64,000 bases of DNA from a virus: the IMG/VR virus record IMGVR_UViG_3300037464_000007, positions 5,165 to 69,164 of that record; one strand, 5' to 3'. Shown here one piece after another: positions 4,947 through 18,499 of this stretch; the first letter of the stretch is position 1; each line of letters starts with the position of its first letter. The position numbers were made by a program, and so were the translations under genes. Below the pieces are notes generated by a model. That model searched no databases and was not told the DNA's origin. It saw only the letters and a program-made list of their open reading frames with translations.

Positions 4947-5238
4947 TATTTATTTCCTCTTCGGATTCGTAAGGTTTGTAACTTTCTAACAAAGGTTGTA
5001 ACTTAAAAAGAATAATCTCTGCCCAATCAGGACTACCATCTTTTACCCAATCTCGATAGTTGCTTCCTTTTTCTTCTTCTAGATAGTCTCTATGGATAGC
5101 AGTTACTAAAGAATCTTCATAAGAATCATAAATTCTTATTTTATAATTCTTAGATAGTAGAAACTGGAGATAATTATGTTTAGCTTCTTCTAGCCTGAAT
5201 TGAAGAAACTTGAGTTCAGCTAGTTCCTGTGTGTTCAT
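4930..5238 (-). CDS. hypothetical protein
   Basis: 102 aa ORF in operon. Confidence 0.65.
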   Translation of the reverse strand: MNTQELAELKFLQFRLEEAKHNYLQFLLSKNYKIRIYDSYEDSLVTAIHRDYLEEEKGSNYRDWVKDGSPDWAEIILFKLQPLLESYKPYESEEEINSELAN

Positions 5239-7654: not shown

Positions 7655-8044
7655 CTAATTACCAAACCATATATCTGTGCCATCAGTAAAATAGTAGATG
7701 AGTTTACTTTCTGTTTCTTCTACTTTTCCTACTACCTTATTTATAAACTCTAAAAAACTAGAATCTATCATCCCGTTACAAGCCGGAAATATAGACTTAA
7801 TCTCTCTTCCACCTTTTATAAAAACTAAAGCTAGATAGTACGGTTTTTCTAGTGAAACATCTTCTGGTAGTTGGTAATCGGCAATTGAGCCATATTCGTA
7901 ACGTATAAGTCGGGCATTGACACAATCTTGATTAGTAGACATAATAAAAATCCAAAATCTTGTAATGTACAAACACCAAAAAACCTCCACCTTTAGAGAA
8001 GTATTAGTTCTCATTAAGGCAGAGGCTAGAAAATCAATGAGCAA
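7655..8044 (-). CDS. hypothetical protein (true start probably MSTNQ)
   Basis: ORF in operon. Confidence 0.55.
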   Translation of the reverse strand: MLIDFLASALMRTNTSLKVEVFWCLYITRFWIFIMSTNQDCVNARLIRYEYGSIADYQLPEDVSLEKPYYLALVFIKGGREIKSIFPACNGMIDSSFLEFINKVVGKVEETESKLIYYFTDGTDIWFGN

Positions 8045-8084
8045 AAGCTTTTAGCTCGTGCAATTAGCGGTTAGTAGAAGAGAT

Positions 8085-8957
8085 TTATTTCTTTTTGTTC
8101 TTTGGTTGAATAGAAGGTTCTTCTGGTTTAGTTTCTAATTCCACAGCAGTAGTATCAATTGGTAGAGAAGTATCGGGAAGAGGTTCTGAGGTTATATTTG
8201 TCTCTTCCTCGGGTTCATCAGAAATAATGTCTGGCTCTATTTCTTTAATTTCTTCTGAGTCAGTCGCAGGAGCTAGAGTAAACTGACTGACATCTAAGTG
8301 TTTAGATAATCTCGGAGTATCTTCTATTAACCCTGACATCTGTTCTTTAAAACGAGCAACAACCAAACCTAAATCGACATTCATAGACTTGCTGAATCTT
8401 CCATCTTCTTCAACTCGAAGATCGTCTCGAACTTCTAGATAAGAGATACATAAGATAAGCATCTTTACTAGGTCGGGAGTGTAATGTCCCATGTCACATA
8501 GAACAGTTAAATGATTAGCAAAAGCAGGAGACATCAACCACTCAGAAACAACTAATGCTAGACTTATTGCCTCAAGTCCTGGAAAATTGGAGTTAACCGG
8601 TTTATAAACTAGCTGCCTTGTCTGAGTAAAGAGGGGTGTTGTTTCCCAAGTAATTCTTTGTTCTATTGGCAGAGTAGTATTACTAGAAAGAGTGAAAAAT
8701 GCCACATCTTGAGTTATATCATTTCCCGTTGTGTATCGGAAAATTAGTTGCTGACCTCTTTCACTCGATTGTAAGTTGATAGAAAGTATTTCAACCTTTG
8801 CATCTTTAACTGGCTTGAACTCTTTTGTTTGGGTATCTTCTTCCCCATTCTTACCTTTCTTTGTCTTAATAGATGTTGCAGCGGGTAGAAGTTCTAACTG
8901 AGTGTATTCTACTGATTCAGAAGCAAAAGATAAACGTTGACGAAATTGAATAGCCAT
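8085..8957 (-). CDS. hypothetical protein with acidic/Pro-rich C-terminus
   Basis: 290 aa, strong TAAGGAG RBS. Confidence 0.8.
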   Translation of the reverse strand: MAIQFRQRLSFASESVEYTQLELLPAATSIKTKKGKNGEEDTQTKEFKPVKDAKVEILSINLQSSERGQQLIFRYTTGNDITQDVAFFTLSSNTTLPIEQRITWETTPLFTQTRQLVYKPVNSNFPGLEAISLALVVSEWLMSPAFANHLTVLCDMGHYTPDLVKMLILCISYLEVRDDLRVEEDGRFSKSMNVDLGLVVARFKEQMSGLIEDTPRLSKHLDVSQFTLAPATDSEEIKEIEPDIISDEPEEETNITSEPLPDTSLPIDTTAVELETKPEEPSIQPKNKKK

Positions 8958-9502: not shown

Positions 9503-12500
9503 CTAGATAACTTGCTCTGCTGCATTTAATGCGTCATGTAAAGCAGATAAGTGATCTAATAGACCCTGACTGACATTACTCTTCCAATCTGGATAAGCTA
9601 GATTTAACTTGGAATACAAACCTTTCTGTCCGGTTGTTGGGTCGTCATTTAGTGACATTGCTAACCAGGATTTAACGCTTCCTTTTCTAGCTTCTTCTAA
9701 CAGCTCCCTCCCTTTTAGCTCTAAATTTTCATCTTTTGATTTGAGGTAATATTCAGCGGTTTCAAGTTTCGATTGTTGACCTTTATACAAGATATCAATC
9801 AACTGAATCTTAATCCGATAAGCCCAAAGTTCGATTCTGTTAGGTAAGATATCCCAAGGAGTTAATAAAACACCGTTAGAACATCGGAATCCTATAGGCA
9901 ATTCCGTTAGTAGATAGAACTGATTGATTACAGAATCCCAAACAATAGTAGATATCTCAGGTTTGTGGGTTACTAAACCATGAATCCCTATCATTAATCT
10001 ACCAGGGTCGTGTTTTTTAACTAATTCCCCGCCTAACTCAATCTTATCCTCCTTTTCCTTATTCCATTTCTTCCAATTATTAGTCATTACCTCCAATAGT
10101 TTAGTGGCATCGTGCTTGTCATAAATCTCTAAAGTATGCAAGTTGACGAATTTACCTTTATCTACCTCACTTTCTTTACAAAACGGAGTACAAAACTGCA
10201 TGAAAGTCTTAGCAATACTTCCATAACCTCGACTTTTCTCACCAAAACCTAAGATATCGCGAGCAGGTGTCTTGGTAGCTATTTTTTCACTATCAATGAA
10301 CCTTTGAGCGTTGTTATTGATGAATTTTTGAGTTATTCTCTCAATCTGAGCTTGTGCGTTTTGGATTAGATGAAAATCTGCTATCGAACACTTCAAAATA
10401 TTCGCAAACTCACCGTTTCCAACCCAAATAACTGTGGAATTGAACTTTACAGCGACTTTTCCACTGATTTTGTCATCTTTTACAGGTTTAAAGATAGCTA
10501 ATTGCTGTCTAGTTTGAAGTTTTCCATCATAGTAGATAGAGATTATGCACTCATCTTTGTCTTGGATGACTAAATGAGCTTGTTTGTAAGGAAAATTGTC
10601 CATCAAATATTGTTTAATCTCAGAATATGAAGGTACTTTCTCCCCAAAAACTCTTTGTAGATTGCCAGGAACTCTTTTTAACCATTGAATTGCTGTTGGA
10701 ACCTCTGACCCCCGAGTATCTTTCTCATCACCTAACACTGTTAAACGATAAGAAGGTAGATTTCTTTCTAATTCCTGAACTAAAGAGACATAACCGAGCT
10801 TGTGCAACCGATAATAGTTGTCGGAATAAGAAGATTTCTCTCGAATCTTTTCTTTTTTGAGGTAAGATTCAATGATTTTAGTAGAATCTAGCACCTCTTG
10901 CCTTGATGGTAATGAATTAGAAAGAACTAAAGAAAGTAGATTCTCAAGTAAAGTGAGTTGATCATTCTCCAACTTAATAGAAGTCACAATCAGAGCTAAC
11001 TGTTTCTGCAAATACTCTATTTCTTTCCTAATGTGACTTACTAAATCTGTCTTATTTAGCTTGTCACTTAAGTAAACCGATAGATGGTATGGTGGAACTC
11101 TTAAAGGTAGTGCTATTAAGTCCCATTTAGTACCATCAGGTTCTAGAGTTAGTAACATTGGAGTTTTTCCTATTACTGCTCTCAACTCAAATGAACCAGG
11201 AGCAGACTTAGAACCATCTAATTTAATAGGCTTGGGAATCTTTCTTTCTGTCTGAATGTGAGCTTTTGGAGACTTGATGGCGAGATTAGGATGAGTAAAT
11301 CCCTCAAATGTAATAGGAGACTCAACAAGCCTTTCTTCTCTTTTTAAGTTACCTTTGTCATCTAGCTTGTATTTAGATAAATCAACAGATAGATTGTGCA
11401 ATTCTGCCTGTTTAATTGCAAAGAACACTTCTTCTGTCTCTTTTCTTGATACTGGTTGGTCTGTATTGTCAAAAATCCGATAGCCTTTCTCAGTTTCCCA
11501 AAGATTACCAGTAGAGGGTTCTAACTGTTCAAGAATTATCTTTTGGATACTCAAGTCAGGGAATGTTTCTACTCCATCTGCTACTATCGGTTTCTTAATC
11601 CCGTGCTTATCCCTCAGAGTTACTTCTTCTTTGTTCTTCTCATCAAAATCTGGGTAGTAAAGCAGAACATTCTCAGTAAACCAAGCAATATTCTGATGTG
11701 TTTGTATCCACGTATTATCTACCTTCTTAAGGAAAGTCTGAGTTAGATAGATGTTGCCTTCCTCATCTTTGGTCTTAATAGGTGAGATGTGAAATAAACT
11801 GCCTAACACTGGAATAGCTTCTTTACCTGAACGCTGAATAACTGCATTAGTTTGATTGCGGATTTCAGCTACTCTTTCGCTCTTATCCTCTCTACTTCTT
11901 AACTGAGTGATAGTTTCTTTGGTTACTCGGACAGAATCTTTGTATCTGTCTCCTTTCAAAATGCTATTTCGGACATTAGAGTAGAACTTAAAGTCTTTTG
12001 GCTCCTCAATTATTTGGAGATGTTCGAGTAGTTCAGGGGATGTTGGCGTGACTTTCTTTCCTAGTTGTGCGGATAGCTTTTGACAGATAGGCTTTACATG
12101 ATTGAGAAATACACTCTCAAATGTCTCCTCTTTATCTCTCTTTCCTGTTTGTAGATACCACTCTAAAGCAGGATAAAGGTACAAGACCAAACTATTGTGC
12201 TTCTTCTTCTTAAGTGACTCTATGAATGATTTCTTCTGATTAGTAGCTAACAACCAAGCATTTAATAAGGGTAGAAGGTCATCTGCTTTTAATCCAATCT
12301 CCTTTTTGATTAGCTTGTTTTCAGTATCTCTTAAAGCAACTAACACTCTCATTTGAGGATTGATAGATATATCCCTTACTTCCCCAGCTACTTCTGCTTC
12401 TTGCTCTACTTGTTCGATAACTTCATCAGATAGCACCACATCATCTTCTTTAGTAGTAGAACCTGTACTAATGTCTTCTACTAAAGGCAAAGATTCTGTT

Positions 12501-12967
12501 TGAGTAGTATTGATTACTACTTCTTTCTGAACTACTGTACTGCTACCCTCTTTATCTTCTGATGTTGTGCTGACCTCTGTTACTTGTTCTGCTATTTCTA
12601 GCACTTCTTGAGAGATGTTAGGTACTTGTGGTTTGACTACCATTACTTGTCTGTCTATATCCCATGTGTTATTTGCAGGATAGAAATGTAGGACAGATGA
12701 AGTAGAGATAGAGAAGTCATAGGCAGAATCAAACTCTTTGCAGATAGATTGAAGAACTTTTGCCTTAACATCATTTACTAACTCAGGAGTACCGTTACTT
12801 ACCTTATACACCACTTCAATAGGAGAAGTAGGAGTATCACTTAATAGAATGTTAAACTTGACGTATTCTACTTGTTCGGGATAAGTAGATAAATCAATCA
12901 GAGTTAGCAGATTTAATGAACAAAGTGCTTTAGTTTTAATTTGAGCAGTTGTTAGTTGAGTAGTCAT
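9503..12967 (-). CDS. large hypothetical early protein (1154 aa)
   Basis: Long intact ORF, TAAGGAG RBS, no recognisable catalytic motif. Confidence 0.85.
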   Translation of the reverse strand: MTTQLTTAQIKTKALCSLNLLTLIDLSTYPEQVEYVKFNILLSDTPTSPIEVVYKVSNGTPELVNDVKAKVLQSICKEFDSAYDFSISTSSVLHFYPANNTWDIDRQVMVVKPQVPNISQEVLEIAEQVTEVSTTSEDKEGSSTVVQKEVVINTTQTESLPLVEDISTGSTTKEDDVVLSDEVIEQVEQEAEVAGEVRDISINPQMRVLVALRDTENKLIKKEIGLKADDLLPLLNAWLLATNQKKSFIESLKKKKHNSLVLYLYPALEWYLQTGKRDKEETFESVFLNHVKPICQKLSAQLGKKVTPTSPELLEHLQIIEEPKDFKFYSNVRNSILKGDRYKDSVRVTKETITQLRSREDKSERVAEIRNQTNAVIQRSGKEAIPVLGSLFHISPIKTKDEEGNIYLTQTFLKKVDNTWIQTHQNIAWFTENVLLYYPDFDEKNKEEVTLRDKHGIKKPIVADGVETFPDLSIQKIILEQLEPSTGNLWETEKGYRIFDNTDQPVSRKETEEVFFAIKQAELHNLSVDLSKYKLDDKGNLKREERLVESPITFEGFTHPNLAIKSPKAHIQTERKIPKPIKLDGSKSAPGSFELRAVIGKTPMLLTLEPDGTKWDLIALPLRVPPYHLSVYLSDKLNKTDLVSHIRKEIEYLQKQLALIVTSIKLENDQLTLLENLLSLVLSNSLPSRQEVLDSTKIIESYLKKEKIREKSSYSDNYYRLHKLGYVSLVQELERNLPSYRLTVLGDEKDTRGSEVPTAIQWLKRVPGNLQRVFGEKVPSYSEIKQYLMDNFPYKQAHLVIQDKDECIISIYYDGKLQTRQQLAIFKPVKDDKISGKVAVKFNSTVIWVGNGEFANILKCSIADFHLIQNAQAQIERITQKFINNNAQRFIDSEKIATKTPARDILGFGEKSRGYGSIAKTFMQFCTPFCKESEVDKGKFVNLHTLEIYDKHDATKLLEVMTNNWKKWNKEKEDKIELGGELVKKHDPGRLMIGIHGLVTHKPEISTIVWDSVINQFYLLTELPIGFRCSNGVLLTPWDILPNRIELWAYRIKIQLIDILYKGQQSKLETAEYYLKSKDENLELKGRELLEEARKGSVKSWLAMSLNDDPTTGQKGLYSKLNLAYPDWKSNVSQGLLDHLSALHDALNAAEQVI

Positions 12968-13000
12968 GGTAAGTCTCCTTAAGTTAGTTAGATGGACAAA

Positions 13001-13055
13001 GACTATCTAAGGCATTACACCTTAGTAGCAGGCTTTATGAATTTACCTAGTAGTC
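13001..13055 (-). ncRNA. tRNA-like element TLE1 (anticodon-less)
   Basis: GACTA..[AGGT-AAATTCATAAA-GCCT]..CTAAGG-TGTAATG-CCTTAG-A-TAGTC. Confidence 0.6.
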
Positions 13056-13061
13056 AGTAAA

Positions 13062-13457
13062 CTATTTCTTGAACCCAAAACCTAATCTCCTAACTTTAGC
13101 CATCATAAGTTTTAGAGGAAGAGCATCGCTAGAGTGGTCATGGTGAACATCATAAAAGATTCTCTCGCAATCTCTTACCAGTCTTTCACACACAGGAATA
13201 TAATCTTTTTCTTCCAACTGATCTAAGAGTTCCGAAAACCTTATATAACCTGTCTCACAACACTCCTCTCCATTCTCGTTTAGGTAATCTCTGATAGACC
13301 ACTCAACTAATACTTGGTTTTTTGAGTTGATACTAAATGATTCCCAAGCTTCACAGAGATAGTTACGAACTACCTTGTCACTTAGTATTTTTTGAGCAAT
13401 TAAGTCTGTGAGTGTTTTGACATCTGATAGTTTGATTGTGCAATCAATAACAGCCAT
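13062..13457 (-). CDS. hypothetical protein
   Basis: 131 aa, AAGGAG RBS. Confidence 0.75.
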   Translation of the reverse strand: MAVIDCTIKLSDVKTLTDLIAQKILSDKVVRNYLCEAWESFSINSKNQVLVEWSIRDYLNENGEECCETGYIRFSELLDQLEEKDYIPVCERLVRDCERIFYDVHHDHSSDALPLKLMMAKVRRLGFGFKK

Positions 13458-13517
13458 GTGAATTCTCCTTTGTTTTGTGTGAACCTCTACCTAGTTTTGA
13501 CGATATAAGGTAGAAAT

Positions 13518-13548
13518 ACTTCTGTACAGCAACGAACTATACAGAAGT
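13518..13548 (-). ncRNA. tRNA minihelix-like hairpin TLE2 (12 bp stem, 7 nt loop)
   Basis: ACTTCTGTATAG-TTCGTTG-CTGTACAGAAGT. Confidence 0.6.
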
Positions 13549-13555
13549 GTTAAAA

Positions 13556-13771
13556 CTAAAATCCTTGGTCTTCTGAGTCTAACCAAACACCTCCGACAAA
13601 TAACAGCACATATCTTGCACACTTGTTTAAATATGCTTGGTACTCCCTTGACCTAAAGACTCCTACATTAGATAAACCTACATAAGGGTAGATTCTTTGA
13701 GGTTTAGTACCTTTAGCTTTAACTGCTGCTCTCGCATTACTAAACAATACTTTCCAAAGCTGTCTATTCAT
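13556..13771 (-). CDS. hypothetical basic protein
   Basis: 71 aa ORF overlapping the upstream stop. Confidence 0.6.
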   Translation of the reverse strand: MNRQLWKVLFSNARAAVKAKGTKPQRIYPYVGLSNVGVFRSREYQAYLNKCARYVLLFVGGVWLDSEDQGF

Positions 13772-14156
13772 TTTTAGCTCTTGTAATTACCTTGCCATTA
13801 GAAGGAGGAAAACAATCGTAGTCCTTATCTTCTTCCAAAGTCTTTAACCATTCTTGAAATTGTTCGTATCTTTCAACAGCTAATCTTGAGCCAGTAAAGA
13901 ATCTTAAATTGTACTTTCCAGCTAAGAACAGTGACGGAACTTTTACATGAGGTTGAAATAGATATCTTTCTCGATACCTACAAAACCCAAATTCTAGTTC
14001 GTAATTAATCAGAGTTGCACCTTTCCTTAACTCTTGACTAATCCAAGTTTCTTGTTCAGAAGTAGCTAGCTCTATAACACCAATGCTTTCGAGTAATTTC
14101 TTTAACACTTGATTAGTAGCTCTATGAATACAGTTAGAGCTAGATTCAGGAGTCAT
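13764..14156 (-). CDS. hypothetical protein (start moved to ATG 14156)
   Basis: The ORF-track GTG at 14210 lies in the T-arm of TLE3; in-frame ATG gives MTPESS. Confidence 0.6.
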   Translation of the reverse strand: MTPESSSNCIHRATNQVLKKLLESIGVIELATSEQETWISQELRKGATLINYELEFGFCRYRERYLFQPHVKVPSLFLAGKYNLRFFTGSRLAVERYEQFQEWLKTLEEDKDYDCFPPSNGKVITRAKNE

Positions 14157-14190
14157 TGTCGTTAAAAATCCCAAGTATACAAATGGGAAG

Positions 14191-14246
14191 ACACCCTTTA
14201 GGACTTGCACCTAATAACTCATAAGAGCTAGCTAATTATAGGGTGT
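14191..14246 (-). ncRNA. tRNA-like element TLE3
   Basis: ACACCCT-ATAATTAGCTA-[GCTC-TTAT-GAGT]-TA-TTAGG-TGCAAGT-CCTAA-AGGGTGT. Confidence 0.75.
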
Positions 14247-14264
14247 GGTGAGAGTTAACTGAAT

Positions 14265-14486
14265 CTAATTTACAGTTTTTAATCTTGCTGACTCATATCT
14301 TGTAAAAGCATCGGCTCTAGATATGGTCTTAGCTCCCTCTAACAAATCTTGTGGAAAGTTTTTACAGATTTGAAGTAGAGACTCTCTAGTAATACTGCTA
14401 GATTTGTAACCGTTTAAACAGACACTACTTACTAACCCTTTTTCATAGGCTAAATAGTAAGCATTTATTAATTGGGATGTATTCAT
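14265..14486 (-). CDS. hypothetical protein
   Basis: 73 aa, GAGGA RBS. Confidence 0.65.
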   Translation of the reverse strand: MNTSQLINAYYLAYEKGLVSSVCLNGYKSSSITRESLLQICKNFPQDLLEGAKTISRADAFTRYESARLKTVN

Positions 14487-14531
14487 TTGTTTTTCCTCAG
14501 TAATTGATGTTGATAAGTAAAAGTTAGCCTA

Positions 14532-14900
14532 TTAAGCTATTGATTGCAATCTCTTTAACTTGTATTGCTTATAAGCTCTCTTCCTCATTGTTAGTTCTAT
14601 CTCCTTACTTACTGACTTTCTATTTCTTAGAAACCAGGAATAGTAATCTTCTAATATCCCGAGATGGTCGTAAATAGACAACGTATCGCAAAATAAAGAG
14701 TGATTACTACTTAGGTAAAAAGCTTTGTTAGGTTTACTGTAATGAAGTCTAGCACCAGTATCTAAAATCACACAGCAATACTTACCTTTATCCGGGTCTT
14801 TCAATCTCTCTAGCTGATACTTTAATTCAGAAGGAGATATATTTGTTAGTTGAGAACGGTCTATTATGATGATTGCAGCTTGTTCTTCAGTTAAAAACAT
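14532..14900 (-). CDS. hypothetical protein
   Basis: 122 aa, GAGG RBS. Confidence 0.7.
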   Translation of the reverse strand: MFLTEEQAAIIIIDRSQLTNISPSELKYQLERLKDPDKGKYCCVILDTGARLHYSKPNKAFYLSSNHSLFCDTLSIYDHLGILEDYYSWFLRNRKSVSKEIELTMRKRAYKQYKLKRLQSIA

Positions 14901-14935
14901 TTTGACCTCATTACCAGGAGTAGATTACCTGGGAG

Positions 14936-14992
14936 AGTCTAGCTAGGAATCCAACCTAGTAACTGAGAAGTTGTTAGCATTAACTCTAGACT
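14936..14992 (-). ncRNA. tRNA-like element TLE4
   Basis: AGTCTAG-A-[GTTA-ATGC-TAAC]-[AACT-TCTC-AGTT]-A-CTAGG-TTGGATT-CCTAG-CTAGACT. Confidence 0.75.
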
Positions 14993-15181
14993 TGTTGATT
15001 ACCTTCTATTGACGTGAATCTTTTTGTTCTTAGCCACTATCTTTCTACTTTTAACTAACTCATAGAAAACAGTAGGTAGATAGTTATGTTCTCTGCAATA
15101 GGACTTAACTGCTTTTATATCTAACCTTAAACTTCTGGCAGCTAAACCAAGATACCAATCACTCTCATTTTTCATTATTTT

Positions 15182-15748
15182 CTAACTCGCACTTCTGTTT
15201 GAGAGTAGATAAGTTGGTATTTGGTAAGTAGTGACGTTATCAGGTTCTGTCTCTTCTTCCTCATCATCTTCTACTAACTCGGGATGAGCTTCTGCAATCT
15301 TGTCTAAAATTTGAGTTGCTATGTCATAAGGTTGCTCTAGAGTAGTTTTCAATCGAGGCATCTCAGAAAACCCAAAGTCTTTGTAATCATAATCATCCCA
15401 GAAGCTAACCCCGTGTTCAAAACATCTCAACACTTCAGAATAGGCTTTGTCTTCATCAGTGTCTAACATATCGACAAATAAGTCAGCGCCGATGTTGTTA
15501 ATTATGTTCTCAACTAAGGGATGTAAAGCTTGGTATTCAGCAGATAAGTCTAAATCTTCCTTAGCAGTTTTGTAGTTCTCAACTATATCCTCGCCTGGTT
15601 GGATGAGTAAAGGACATAAGTGCGAGTAACCTTCATCTGATTCTACTAATGTAGATATGGTGTCAGCTAGGATTAAGTCGAGTATTTCCTTAACTGTATA
15701 CGGACTTTCGGACATTAGTTCTTGTGCTGTTACTGTTTGAGTAGTCAT
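15182..15748 (-). CDS. hypothetical acidic protein
   Basis: 188 aa, AAAGGAG RBS. Confidence 0.8.
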   Translation of the reverse strand: MTTQTVTAQELMSESPYTVKEILDLILADTISTLVESDEGYSHLCPLLIQPGEDIVENYKTAKEDLDLSAEYQALHPLVENIINNIGADLFVDMLDTDEDKAYSEVLRCFEHGVSFWDDYDYKDFGFSEMPRLKTTLEQPYDIATQILDKIAEAHPELVEDDEEEETEPDNVTTYQIPTYLLSNRSAS

Positions 15749-15811
15749 GTTGTCTCCTTTGATGTTAAATCAAACTTGTGAGATAAACGTTACCCGTTGT
15801 TGAGTAACTAG

Positions 15812-15868
15812 ACCTCTACTAGGGATCGAACCTAGACTAATGTTACTTAGTATCCAATTTTTAGAGGT
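15812..15868 (-). ncRNA. tRNA-like element TLE5
   Basis: ACCTCTA-AAAATTGGAT-[ACTAA-GTAACA-TTAGT]-CTAGG-TTCGATC-CCTAG-TAGAGGT. Confidence 0.8.
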
Positions 15869-15889
15869 GATGAGAATGAGTTAAGAGAA

Positions 15890-16258
15890 TTACTTATCAA
15901 AACTCCATCTATCGAACTCACTTTTTATCTGAGCTTTCAACTCCTCTAGATTAGTAGAGGAGTAAGACCTTTTAGGATACTTACTTGGTTTCTGTCCTTT
16001 CCCTTCTTGATACTCACTAGAAACATCTAGCTTAACTCTGTGCGAATCCTCTTGAAATATATACAGAATCTTTTTTCTATTGATGTCGCGGTTAAACAAC
16101 TTGATTTTAATTACCTCTATCCATTTGCTCAAATCTTCTTCCACTGTTACGGATAGAATAATTTTAGAGTCAGTTTTAAACTCAGTAGATAATGCTTTGA
16201 TTTCTGAGAGTGTTGGTCTTGAAAAATGGTAAACAGTTTTAGCAGTTAGACCTTGCAT
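15890..16258 (-). CDS. hypothetical protein
   Basis: 122 aa, AAGGAG RBS. Confidence 0.75.
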   Translation of the reverse strand: MQGLTAKTVYHFSRPTLSEIKALSTEFKTDSKIILSVTVEEDLSKWIEVIKIKLFNRDINRKKILYIFQEDSHRVKLDVSSEYQEGKGQKPSKYPKRSYSSTNLEELKAQIKSEFDRWSFDK

Positions 16259-16307
16259 GATGGACTCCTTTGTAATTAGCAGATTACCTAGAATAAACTA
16301 AGTAAAA

Positions 16308-16372
16308 GCTCAGCTAGGAATCGAACCTAGATAGATACTTCCGTAAGGAAAATAGTTACCTCTAACCTGAGC
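16308..16372 (-). ncRNA. tRNA-like element TLE6
   Basis: GCTCAG-[GTTA-GAGG-TAAC]-TATT-[TTCC-TTAC-GGAA]-GTATCTAT-CTAGG-TTCGATT-CCTAG-CTGAGC. Confidence 0.8.
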
Positions 16373-16383
16373 AAATAGATTAA

Positions 16384-16716
16384 TTAAAACGTTTCTTTCA
16401 TGTACTGTTGTATTGCTAAAGAATCGCAAATCTTTAAGCTTACATCCCAGTTACCAGCTAAACAATAGCTTTCACCTAATCCTAAAAACTTAGATTGATT
16501 GTCCACGATTATATCAAGGTAGACTTTCTGAGTATCTAGGTAAACTTCTAATCGGTAAACTCTGTAACTTACTCCCCAGTCTGTGAGATAACTGATATTA
16601 CTAACAATCAGACAATCTCCCAACTCATACGGGTAATTTCTAACTTCTTGCTTAACCTGTTTACCAATTGGGTTTGATGGTAATCCAAGTAGATGATTGT
16701 ACATTTGAGTAGACAT
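16384..16716 (-). CDS. hypothetical protein
   Basis: 110 aa ORF in operon. Confidence 0.65.
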   Translation of the reverse strand: MSTQMYNHLLGLPSNPIGKQVKQEVRNYPYELGDCLIVSNISYLTDWGVSYRVYRLEVYLDTQKVYLDIIVDNQSKFLGLGESYCLAGNWDVSLKICDSLAIQQYMKETF

Positions 16717-16773
16717 TTGACCAAATAACCTAGTGAATACAGACTTGCTTTAGTACAAATCATTCTAGGTGAA

Positions 16774-16828
16774 AGCTCAGTTAGGAATTCCACCTAACAT
16801 CAGGGGTATTTTTACGAACCTGTGAGCT
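16774..16828 (-). ncRNA. tRNA-like element TLE7
   Basis: AGCTCA-[CAGG-TTCGTAAAAATACC-CCTG]-AT-GTTAGG-TGGAATT-CCTAAC-TGAGCT. Confidence 0.7.
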
Positions 16829-16837
16829 AATGAATTC

Positions 16838-17254
16838 TTATTTCTTACCACCTAAGACAGCATCATAAGGTCGTGGTTGAGATTGACCTCCGAGAACTAC
16901 TGCATATTTGAGAGATTCTTTTAGCTTGTCTTCTTCAGTGATAATTGAAAGAATCTTATTACCTCTCCACTCTTCCTCCCCAATATACCATTGACCTTTT
17001 TTACAGTAGATAGTAGGCAGACTAAAATGATTGAGTAAACAATTTAGCCTTGATTTAGTTGTCTTTGTTTGGTAGCCACAATCTGAAAGAGTGAGAGTGT
17101 TGTCTATAGTATCGAGAATCGCTATTTTGTGACCATGTAAGTGAACGTGAACGCAACCCGACCCACTACCAGAATAAACTAGAGTATTGTCGTTAGAGTA
17201 ATCTTTTCTTGCTTTTATAGCCTCAATCATTTCTTGTTCAATCTTACGCATCAT
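16838..17254 (-). CDS. hypothetical phage early protein (start moved to MMRKIEQEM)
   Basis: In-frame ATG at 17254; contains VHLHGHKIA..LSDCGYQTKTTKSRLN. Confidence 0.7.
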   Translation of the reverse strand: MMRKIEQEMIEAIKARKDYSNDNTLVYSGSGSGCVHVHLHGHKIAILDTIDNTLTLSDCGYQTKTTKSRLNCLLNHFSLPTIYCKKGQWYIGEEEWRGNKILSIITEEDKLKESLKYAVVLGGQSQPRPYDAVLGGKK

Positions 17255-17305
17255 CTTAATTACCCGGTGAAAATGACTTGCTGAATTACAAATCAATTCC
17301 GGTAG

Positions 17306-17352
17306 ACTTACTAGAGGGATCGAACCTCTGAGAGCTAACCATAGCAGTAAGT
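17306..17352 (-). ncRNA. tRNA-like element TLE8 (acceptor + D-arm + T-arm only)
   Basis: ACTTACT-[GCTA-TGGT-TAGC]-TCTC-AGAGG-TTCGATC-CCTCT-AGTAAGT. Confidence 0.8.
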
Positions 17353-17437
17353 AGTGGAATAAACTTAAACCTTATCAAACAAGTTAAGCAACTCTGTAAT
17401 CAAAGGTGTACTGTTGAAATCTTTGAGATGTGGGTAT

Positions 17438-17872
17438 TTAGTCAACTGCTTTGAATCCAATTTCCCCGTATTGTTGCTCTAAATCAATCCAGCTATTTTC
17501 GCTTATAAACAGCTTAGGATAACCTTTAGAGAATAATGGACTGTTGATGTGAATAGTGTGTATTGTTCCGTCAGATGTCTTTTCTACTTGTCTAAACTGT
17601 GAAACCTTCAACCTTCTATTAATGTGGGATTGTAGAGTCTCGAAACTATCAGCGGTTAGATAAGTGTAGCTTGTAGATTCATAAGGACTTGTAACCTTTA
17701 CTATTACCGCACCTTGAGCTTTTAACTCTGTGGCTAACTGTTCAATCTTTTCTATAGATACTGGTAAATGACCGTTACTAGGGTCATGACAGTAAATAGA
17801 ATAGCGATTGTCAAACTGATGTAGGTAAAGAGAATCAATTACGGGCATAGAGGTACTTGTTTGAGTAATCAT
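17438..17872 (-). CDS. hypothetical protein, probable first early gene
   Basis: 144 aa, AAAGGAG RBS. Confidence 0.75.
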   Translation of the reverse strand: MITQTSTSMPVIDSLYLHQFDNRYSIYCHDPSNGHLPVSIEKIEQLATELKAQGAVIVKVTSPYESTSYTYLTADSFETLQSHINRRLKVSQFRQVEKTSDGTIHTIHINSPLFSKGYPKLFISENSWIDLEQQYGEIGFKAVD

Positions 17873-17917
17873 TATGTTGTCTCCTTTGATATAACCCGGA
17901 ATAAAGCCACCGGGAAA

Positions 17918-18079
17918 ACCGATAAAGGGAATTGCACCCTTAGTACCTTAGACTTAACCTTGAGACACTTCTAACGTTATCTCTATCTAACTAACACAAG
18001 CTGTCACTACCTGTACTAATTAGCGTCACTACCCTTTATAGATTGAGAGATGGCTTCTAATATCCTGACTATCATCGGT
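17918..18079 (-). ncRNA. tRNA-like element TLE9 with a long (about 130 nt) insert
   Basis: ACCGATG..(insert)..AAGGG-TGCAATT-CCCTT-TATCGGT; 7-bp acceptor-like stem with a G.U pair. Confidence 0.6.
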
Positions 18080-18499
18080 ATACTATTCATTTTTCAAGGT
18101 TCTGTTCGATTAATATCCCTTCATCTAGCAGATGTTGGAACATTAACTCTTAAGTAGTGTTAGTCAGAAACAAGTTAGGTTAGTTGTGCTGTTATCCCCA
18201 TTACTAAGGGATAAGTAGATAATAAGGTACTAATCTCAACCATTGTGCTAACTATCCAACAGACACTAGCAGTTTTAGTTAAGGTAGTTATCTCTTATTA
18301 GTAGAGATGAGCTAGTAAGTAACATAGGTTAGACCTGATATACTGTACTTGTGCTAACCTCTAGGTATAAGAGAGTGAGTCTCGGTACTAGCGGTAGAGC
18401 TTAGTACATACTCTGAATCTAATGCCCTCGATGGTGTGAGGATTACAGGAGATAGTAGATGAATAACGTGTGTCAGCTCGTTTCTTGCTCCATGTATCT

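Follow-up and report, generated by a model that had tools for sequence, protein, structure and literature searches.

Early genes of a phage operon are separated by anticodon-less tRNA-like elements

Anticodon-less tRNA-like elements, which are present far above chance, lie between the early genes of an uncultured soil phage, in an operon found in the 64,000-nt stretch analysed here (positions 5,165 to 69,164 of IMG/VR virus record IMGVR_UViG_3300037464_000007, hereafter the window). Judging from sequence, these elements probably direct the processing of the early transcript by host RNase Z, for which the support is best, and by host RNase P, and would represent a bacteriophage form of tRNA punctuation. 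The operon occupies the minus strand from ca. 18.1 to 9.5 kb, where a series of small ORFan genes leads up to a conserved 1154-aa gene (window 9503-12967, minus strand). A preliminary description had listed nine copies of an acceptor stem joined to a T arm in this region, and reading of the sequence indicated that all nine places hold the structure described and that the stem sequences quoted for them are correct. The nine copies are better given as seven full elements, one minihelix variant (at 13518) and one atypical leader element (at 17918), the latter consisting of a T arm and a 3' strand whose 5' partner is predicted ca. 130 nt upstream. As also claimed, eight of the nine loops keep T54, R57 and A58 (the exception being 13518-13548), no copy has an anticodon loop or encodes CCA, and a second hairpin follows the elements.

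In the seven full elements, an acceptor stem with 6-7 of its 7 bp formed directly abuts, without spacer, a 5-bp T arm carrying a 7-nt T-loop, and the 5' strand of the acceptor occurs 16-36 nt upstream of the T arm with no anticodon arm in the middle. This is the top half of the canonical tRNA (RF00005), with a 7-bp acceptor on a 5-bp T stem, G53-C61, and T54 and A58 in a 7-nt loop; the same features, together with a putative contact of the D-loop GG in some elements, are shared with the tRNA-like domain of tmRNA. The 5-bp anticodon stem and 7-nt anticodon loop of the RF00005 cloverleaf are absent, the middles being 9-36 nt long with hairpin loops of 3-7 nt, so that the elements differ from canonical tRNA by the lack of an anticodon arm and from tmRNA by the lack of an mRNA-like domain.

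A strict T-arm scan (5-bp stem closed by G53-C61, loop of the form T..RA...) gave eight matches on the minus strand of 12961-18100, all of which are intergenic, against 0.2 expected, and 0 of 1000 dinucleotide shuffles reached eight. The plus strand of the same region had no strict T arm and only nine loose matches were found in the rest of both strands. The probability that these structures are chance hairpins or ordinary intrinsic terminators is negligible: a few T arms are caught by a simple terminator scan, but terminator-like sites number four against 3.4 expected, N73-U74 is followed by a second hairpin with no U tract, and this reading is refuted by the shuffles together with the pairing and covariation tests in ten contigs (see below). 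Nor is the region enriched in promoter-like sites (16 versus 22.7 expected). The idea of a promoter before every element, with a transcript start at +1, was rejected, as no -35/-10 signal occurs at -45 to -6. Since neither promoters nor terminators are enriched and no -35/-10 signal lies within 45 nt upstream, the gaps appear to lie within a polycistronic transcript, with a tRNA-like fold placed at its coding-region boundaries, as for t-elements and tRNA punctuation.

The absence of a canonical tRNA match, expected in the preliminary description, was borne out. ARAGORN predicted no tRNA or tmRNA gene in the window, a search of the window and six related loci with Rfam 15 at the gathering score returned no relevant family, and at E-values up to 10 (12.5-19 kb) no match to tRNA or to a viral tRNA-like structure (TLS) was obtained. 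The sole weak Rfam match, rli40, was regarded as a chance match. The elements also differ from the 3' tRNA-like structures of the turnip yellow mosaic virus type in being internal, in having a plain 7-bp acceptor stem and in giving no Rfam TLS match. In one related locus (L005), ARAGORN called a tRNA-Leu that overlaps an element; it was rejected as a real tRNA because it extends into the upstream open reading frame (ORF) and has no counterpart in the L006 ortholog.

Conservation and covariation in related contigs

Homologues of the 1154-aa protein (32-77% identity), whose gene is kept in all relatives and always comes immediately after the array on the downstream side, were used to reach seven contigs carrying the same operon (Logan/ENA loci). 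A pattern derived from the most conserved element (core of 13001-13055) further led to three IMG/VR contigs in which the elements are again grouped on one strand, bringing the related contigs to ten. One of these three, G001, is a 146.5-kb genome with terminal repeats. In the seven loci, strict T arms number 6-12 per locus on the coding strand and 0-1 on the opposite strand, nearly all in the ca. 100-nt gaps upstream of the large gene.

A covariance model was built from 12 compact elements and rebuilt from 28 matches (model R2). It gave 65 matches at E-values up to 5, 62 of which are on the coding strand of these operons, and in the whole genome of the window phage its six matches all fall in this one operon. 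This search of relatives, a check put forward in the preliminary description, showed the elements to be conserved with covariation in the ten contigs. In the model-fitted alignment of the 65 matches, 95.8% of the cells are paired, compared with 25-52% when the partners are slid, and 234 double-sided changes occur, compared with 23-46; G53-C61 is a G-C pair in 57 of 57. Because such an alignment leans towards the model, the analysis was repeated with MAFFT and RNAalifold on two orthologous sets including their flanks. The acceptor, a D-like stem of 3-4 bp and the T stem were recovered in both, and in each set four pairs are kept through double-sided changes. An example is given by the T stems AGAGG/CCTCT, GAAAG/CTTTC and ATAGG/CCTAT, which occur on the constant acceptor ACTTACT/AGTAAGT. 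Overall, at least 15 sequence types of element, with differing acceptor stems, were distinguished.

Individual elements of the window

All elements of the window are on the minus strand and are described here in the direction of transcription. The element at 17306..17352 combines the acceptor ACTTACT/AGTAAGT with a mini D arm (GCTA-tggt-TAGC) and the T arm AGAGG-ttcgatc-CCTCT, with C at position 73 and T at position 74. It scores 55.6 bits with R2, unconstrained folding gives its structure, and RNAalifold on the orthologs recovers it with compensatory changes in the T stem. At 16774..16828 (16.2 bits), the acceptor AGCTCA(C)/(C)TGAGCT, which has a conserved C.C at 7:66, is found with the T arm TTAGG-tggaatt-CCTAA; the body of this element occurs on another acceptor stem (AGTCTAC/CTAGACT) in L002, L004 and L006. 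The third, at 16307..16373 (40 bits with R2), has the acceptor (T)GCTCAG/CTGAGC(T), a mini D arm GTTA-gagg-TAAC, an extra internal hairpin and the T arm CTAGG-ttcgatt-CCTAG, with compensatory changes in the alignment of its orthologs. It is followed by 15812..15868 (33.3 bits), with acceptor ACCTCTA/TAGAGGT, internal hairpin ACTAA-gtaaca-TTAGT and T arm CTAGG-ttcgatc-CCTAG. In the L008 ortholog of this element (8031-8116), an insertion inside the T-loop brings the loop from 7 to 36 nt and folds into a small hairpin of its own; both the T stem and the acceptor stem are intact.

The element at 14936..14992 (26.1 bits) is formed by the acceptor AGTCTAG/CTAGACT, a mini D arm GTTA-atgc-TAAC, a hairpin AACT-tctc-AGTT and the T arm CTAGG-ttggatt-CCTAG, and that at 14191..14246 (34.3 bits) by the acceptor ACACCCT/AGGGTGT, an internal hairpin AGCTC-ttat-GAGTT and the T arm TTAGG-tgcaagt-CCTAA, a structure also given by unconstrained folding. 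The last full element (13001..13055) lies just upstream of the 1154-aa gene and has an ortholog at the corresponding position of each of the seven Logan/ENA loci; its acceptor GACTACT/GATAGTC contains one C.A mismatch and its T arm is TAAGG-tgtaatg-CCTTA. When whole gaps were folded without constraint, the tRNA-like fold was returned for three of the seven full elements.

In the minihelix variant (13518..13548), a continuous 12-bp stem (ACTTCTG+TATAG / CTGTA+CAGAAGT) carries the 7-nt loop TTCGTTG and is followed by A73 and T74. A58 is replaced and R2 gives no match; the flanks are like those of the family, and a U-A to U.G change is found in the L007 ortholog (8781).

Sequence context of the predicted processing sites

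Across 54 curated elements from the window and its relatives, position 74 is T in all 54, compared with a background T frequency of 0.30. Position 73 is C in 26, T in 19, A in 7 and G in 2; position -1 is T in 28, C in 20, A in 6 and never G. At -2, 50 elements carry a pyrimidine, and at -3, 43 carry A. Because of the pyrimidines at -1 and 73, the acceptor usually cannot extend to an eighth pair. None of the 54 encodes CCA. By sequence, the elements therefore have the features of a bacterial RNase Z substrate, that is a CCA-less trailer with a uracil no more than 2 nt after the discriminator. In B. subtilis, the activity of RNase Z on CCA-less precursors is raised ca. 200-fold when one of the two nt behind the discriminator is a uracil (PMC10100781), and a uracil after the discriminator inserts in a pocket of RNase Z that is needed for hydrolysis (PMC11649783); both papers cite Pellegrini et al. 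2012. By analogy, the invariant U74 would be the activating determinant of bacterial RNase Z.

The window has no genuine tRNA gene, and three are found in G001, elsewhere in the genome (Lys-UUU, Met-CAU and Pro-UGG; G001:C1:93277-93348 and 109635-109783, L018 and L019). Like the elements, these tRNA genes of the clade do not encode CCA, and U74-U75 is present in all three. The mimics thus carry the same 3' signal as the real tRNAs of the clade, since both are CCA-less with U74. The invariance of U74 in the elements and its match with the tRNAs of G001 are new observations. No domain of the CCA-adding enzyme or RNase Z type was detected in the four virus records or among the 68 ORFs of the window, so that host enzymes would have to act.

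The second hairpin (hairpin 2) is found in ca. four fifths of the modules, a module consisting of an element with its downstream spacer. Elements start 2-21 nt past the upstream stop codon and typically end 31-45 nt before the next start codon. Hairpin 2 begins in most cases 2-3 nt after the end of the acceptor, with a stem of 5-8 bp and a loop of 6-14 nt, and the start codon is located ca. 10 nt further, with or without AAGGAG. In the window, spacers with hairpin 2, all on the minus strand and all between an element and a start codon, occur at 17255..17305, 16717..16773 (ACCTAG...CTAGGT), 16259..16306 (TACTTAG-tttatt-CTAGGTA, with an AAGGAG ribosome-binding site), 15749..15811 (GTTACTC-aacaac-GGGTAAC, with a ribosome-binding site), 14901..14935 (CCAGG-taatctact-CCTGG) and 14157..14190 (CCCA-tttgtatact-TGGG). 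Compensatory changes are found in relatives, with TCAGG/CCTGA in place of the CCAGG/CCTGG of spacer 14901..14935. A larger hairpin than the other hairpins 2 was observed after the minihelix (window 13458-13517, minus strand), in which UUUCUACCU and AGGUAGAGG form a strong stem of 9-10 bp around a 15-nt loop.

A putative punctuation of the early transcript

We propose that the elements are cis-acting mimics of the tRNA top half within the polycistronic early transcript. Each would fold into a 12-bp coaxial stack of acceptor stem and T arm and, in many of them, the GG of the mini D arm would contact the T-loop to give a tRNA-like elbow. Host RNase Z would recognise this fold and cut after position 73, activated by U74, and host RNase P would cut at the 5' edge of the element. 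The downstream mRNA would then start 1-2 nt before hairpin 2, which would shield the new 5' end, and the upstream message would end a few nt past its own stop codon, the operon being resolved into separate gene-sized mRNAs and free mini-tRNAs of 40-70 nt. A stem-loop at the 5' end with few unpaired nt is known to protect bacterial mRNAs from 5'-end-dependent decay. The preliminary description had already suggested tRNA punctuation, and this stands as the best-supported reading with regard to U74, the lack of CCA, the pyrimidines at -1 and 73, the spacing of hairpin 2 and the covariation in ten contigs; cleavage itself is a prediction.

Several points weigh against such processing. A cut by RNase P would leave the 3' end of the upstream mRNA unprotected 2-21 nt past the stop codon, an unexpected arrangement if the system serves stabilisation. 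A1-U72 is found in 36 of the 54 elements in place of the usual bacterial G1-C72, and four of the nine T-loops of the window have G at position 55. The enzyme preferences are those of B. subtilis and may not be those of the host, and the pair counts given above come from a model-fitted alignment in which orthologs are non-independent events. Finally, a search of sequencing runs for the phage sequence returned no RNA run among those listed.

A role in cis without any cleavage, whether in stabilising 3' or 5' ends, in insulating the translation of neighbouring cistrons or in binding a phage protein, seems quite unlikely. The location of the elements 2-21 nt past stop codons, where a structured RNA would stop 3' exonucleases, and the regular distance between hairpin 2 and the start codon would suit such roles, but a plain hairpin would suffice for these jobs, and the T-loop consensus, G53-C61, the geometry of 7+5 bp, U74 and the putative tertiary pair are specific to recognition by tRNA enzymes.

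Mini D arm and possible tRNA-like elbow

In about half of the 54 elements, a 4-bp stem with a 4-nt loop directly follows the acceptor strand. Whenever the D loop ends in GG, the T-loop is TTCGAyy (13 of 13). Three orthologs, namely window 14936-14992, L005 and L007, combine the D loop ATGC with the T-loop TTGGATT, so that the window element would carry a swapped C19:G56 tertiary pair; the L008 ortholog has D loop ATGG and T-loop TTCGATT. This change between G19:C56 and C19:G56 matches what is predicted for the elbow pair of tRNA, and is only suggestive because it probably represents a single evolutionary event. The remaining types of element have a linker of 9-12 nt or another small hairpin with a loop of 3-7 nt, and no recognisable D arm.

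The apparent maintenance of an elbow, although a minihelix suffices for RNase P and RNase Z, would be accounted for if the released, CCA-tailed mini-tRNAs acted in trans as decoys (also suggested in the preliminary description) or sponges, mRNA cutting being incidental. Candidate targets include tRNA-targeting toxins, defence nucleases, RNase P and RNase Z, the CCA-adding enzyme and modification enzymes. With up to 12 elements per operon, high copy numbers would be reached early in infection, and a colicin-D-immunity-like gene (PF09204) occurs on the same early strand in relatives. However, anticodon nucleases cannot be decoyed by elements with no anticodon loop, the diversity of acceptor stems among the sequence types argues against mimicry of one tRNA, and the strict placement in gaps with a following hairpin fits a role in cis better. 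A mainly trans-acting function is unlikely.

Modules as islands of identity

The modules stand out as islands, with 82-96% identity between genomes that share ca. 42% identity in the large protein, and their flanking genes are often non-homologous or ca. 70% identical. For instance, window 17249-17361 is 96% identical to a module of L007 and the adjoining genes differ on both sides. The same element body can be found on different acceptor stems, and the 5' strands are sometimes partly duplicated. Based on these comparisons, the modules may also be regarded as seams for the exchange of early-gene cassettes, a use that would follow from the conservation of RNA modules without being their purpose.

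In T4-type phages, cassettes made of a promoter and a stem-loop have been proposed as conserved recombination boundaries. By the same token, the elements could be linkers acting at the DNA level, or relics, with degenerate tRNA genes serving as boundaries for recombination of early-gene cassettes. The identity islands amid unrelated or diverged genes, the exchange of acceptor stems and the partly duplicated 5' strands are in line with this, yet DNA homology leaves unexplained the double-sided changes in the stems, the putative swapped tertiary pair and the strict strand specificity, and shuffling may arise secondarily from the conservation of RNA modules; this explanation is highly improbable. 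An account in which several functions are combined, namely punctuation, a trans-acting pool of excised, CCA-tailed mini-tRNAs and modules used as recombination linkers, can be entertained but is unlikely. Under this dual role, the apparently preserved elbow suggests a possible engagement of tRNA-directed toxins, of RNase P and RNase Z, or of ribosomal or T-box-like readers of the elbow.

Comparison with known systems

In the literature searched, no description of such anticodon-less tRNA-like elements in phages was found; the principle is known from organelles, MALAT1 and murine gammaherpesvirus 68 (MHV68), and the phage layout was not encountered there. Plant mitochondrial t-elements and the mitochondrial tRNA-punctuation model are reportedly treated by Forner et al. 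2007. As in the phage operon, tRNA or tRNA-like folds lie in these systems between the coding regions of polycistronic transcripts, and in t-elements the acceptor/T-arm part is kept without decoding and is thought to set mRNA ends via RNase P and RNase Z. The phage elements differ in belonging to an early operon with bacterial host enzymes, in occurring in nearly every gap, and in having a downstream hairpin and U74, their cleavage being predicted. In mascRNA of MALAT1, the MEN-beta tRNA-like element and the TMERs of MHV68, a tRNA-like fold embedded in a larger RNA attracts RNase P, RNase Z or both. The TMERs resemble the phage modules in that a tRNA-like part is followed by hairpins, which in TMERs are released by RNase Z. 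These three systems are eukaryotic and nuclear, depend on Pol II or Pol III and retain an anticodon-arm-like stem, whereas the phage elements sit between protein-coding genes and their hairpin precedes a start codon.

In T7, RNase III sites between early genes are cut by the host RNase to give gene-sized, hairpin-ended messages. Both systems rely on structured intergenic signals on the early polycistronic mRNA of a phage and on a host RNase (cutting being predicted here), but the enzyme differs and the long double-stranded hairpins of T7 are replaced here by a tRNA mimic. The only tRNA-like candidates mentioned in a 2023 survey of viral structured RNAs are those that overlap ARAGORN predictions (PMC10690425).

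If the proposed processing is true, phages would use a mitochondria-like tRNA punctuation to split the early transcript into separately stabilised messages, a regulatory layer overlooked by annotation pipelines, given that neither tRNA finders nor Rfam detect the elements. It would widen the range of non-tRNA substrates known for RNase P and RNase Z in bacteria, provide a compact, portable and enzyme-defined module (47 nt plus a hairpin) with which the RNA of synthetic operons could be processed in bacteria, and mark the boundaries where early "host-takeover" genes swap between phages. With U74 shared between the elements and the tRNA genes of the clade, the hypothesis is directly testable with purified enzymes.

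Leader region of the operon

The leader element (17918..17941, minus strand) has the T arm AAGGG-tgcaatt-CCCTT followed by the 3' strand TATCGGT, with a candidate 5' strand ACCGATG at 18073-18079. Its T stem covaries (AAGAG/CTCTT in L003). RNAalifold on three genomes predicted that the leader T arm is closed by ACCGAU/AUCGGU around a branched insert of ca. 150 nt. This predicted closing stem is invariant and may overlap a promoter-like site, the arrangement TTGAAA-17-TGATAG being read in all three sequences. The leader as a whole is a conserved, branched RNA-like region of ca. 190 nt (window 17885-18110, minus strand; L003 3212-3440; L007 1140-1372) that contains a 15-bp covarying hairpin and ends in the T arm and the strand ATCGGT, followed by TTTT.

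Genomic setting and other observations

The IMG/VR virus record that holds the window is 80.9 kb long, and a sequence search of sequencing runs indicated that DNA of the window is also present in soil and biocrust metagenomes. In the INPHARED phage collection, neither a DNA match to the region nor a match to the 1154-aa protein was found, and the terminase of the window phage has distant relatives only. An exact-peptide scan of IMG/VR with the 1154-aa protein and an exact-pattern scan with the best element gave no match. No relative of the 1154-aa protein was detected in Pfam, PHROG, PDB or Atlas. The early proteins of the operon provide no functional clue, since relatives were not found for them in PHROG, Pfam or PDB. 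A motif search for an HU-like gene, aimed at inferring the host, gave no match.

The hexamer TCTACT, which occurs in the 5' flanks of elements and in hairpin 2, was considered as a gap-specific motif and rejected, being over-represented genome-wide on both strands. In the whole window, it occurs 223 times on both strands against 93 expected, a count that 0 of 100 shuffles reached, and the enrichment is alike in coding and non-coding DNA. Finally, the relatives carry a PF09204 colicin-D-type immunity gene (L002 19915-20397, L005 20220-20687 and L008 18524-19018) and leucine-rich-repeat genes, both located downstream in the same direction of transcription; the leucine-rich-repeat gene of the window is found at 591-1148.

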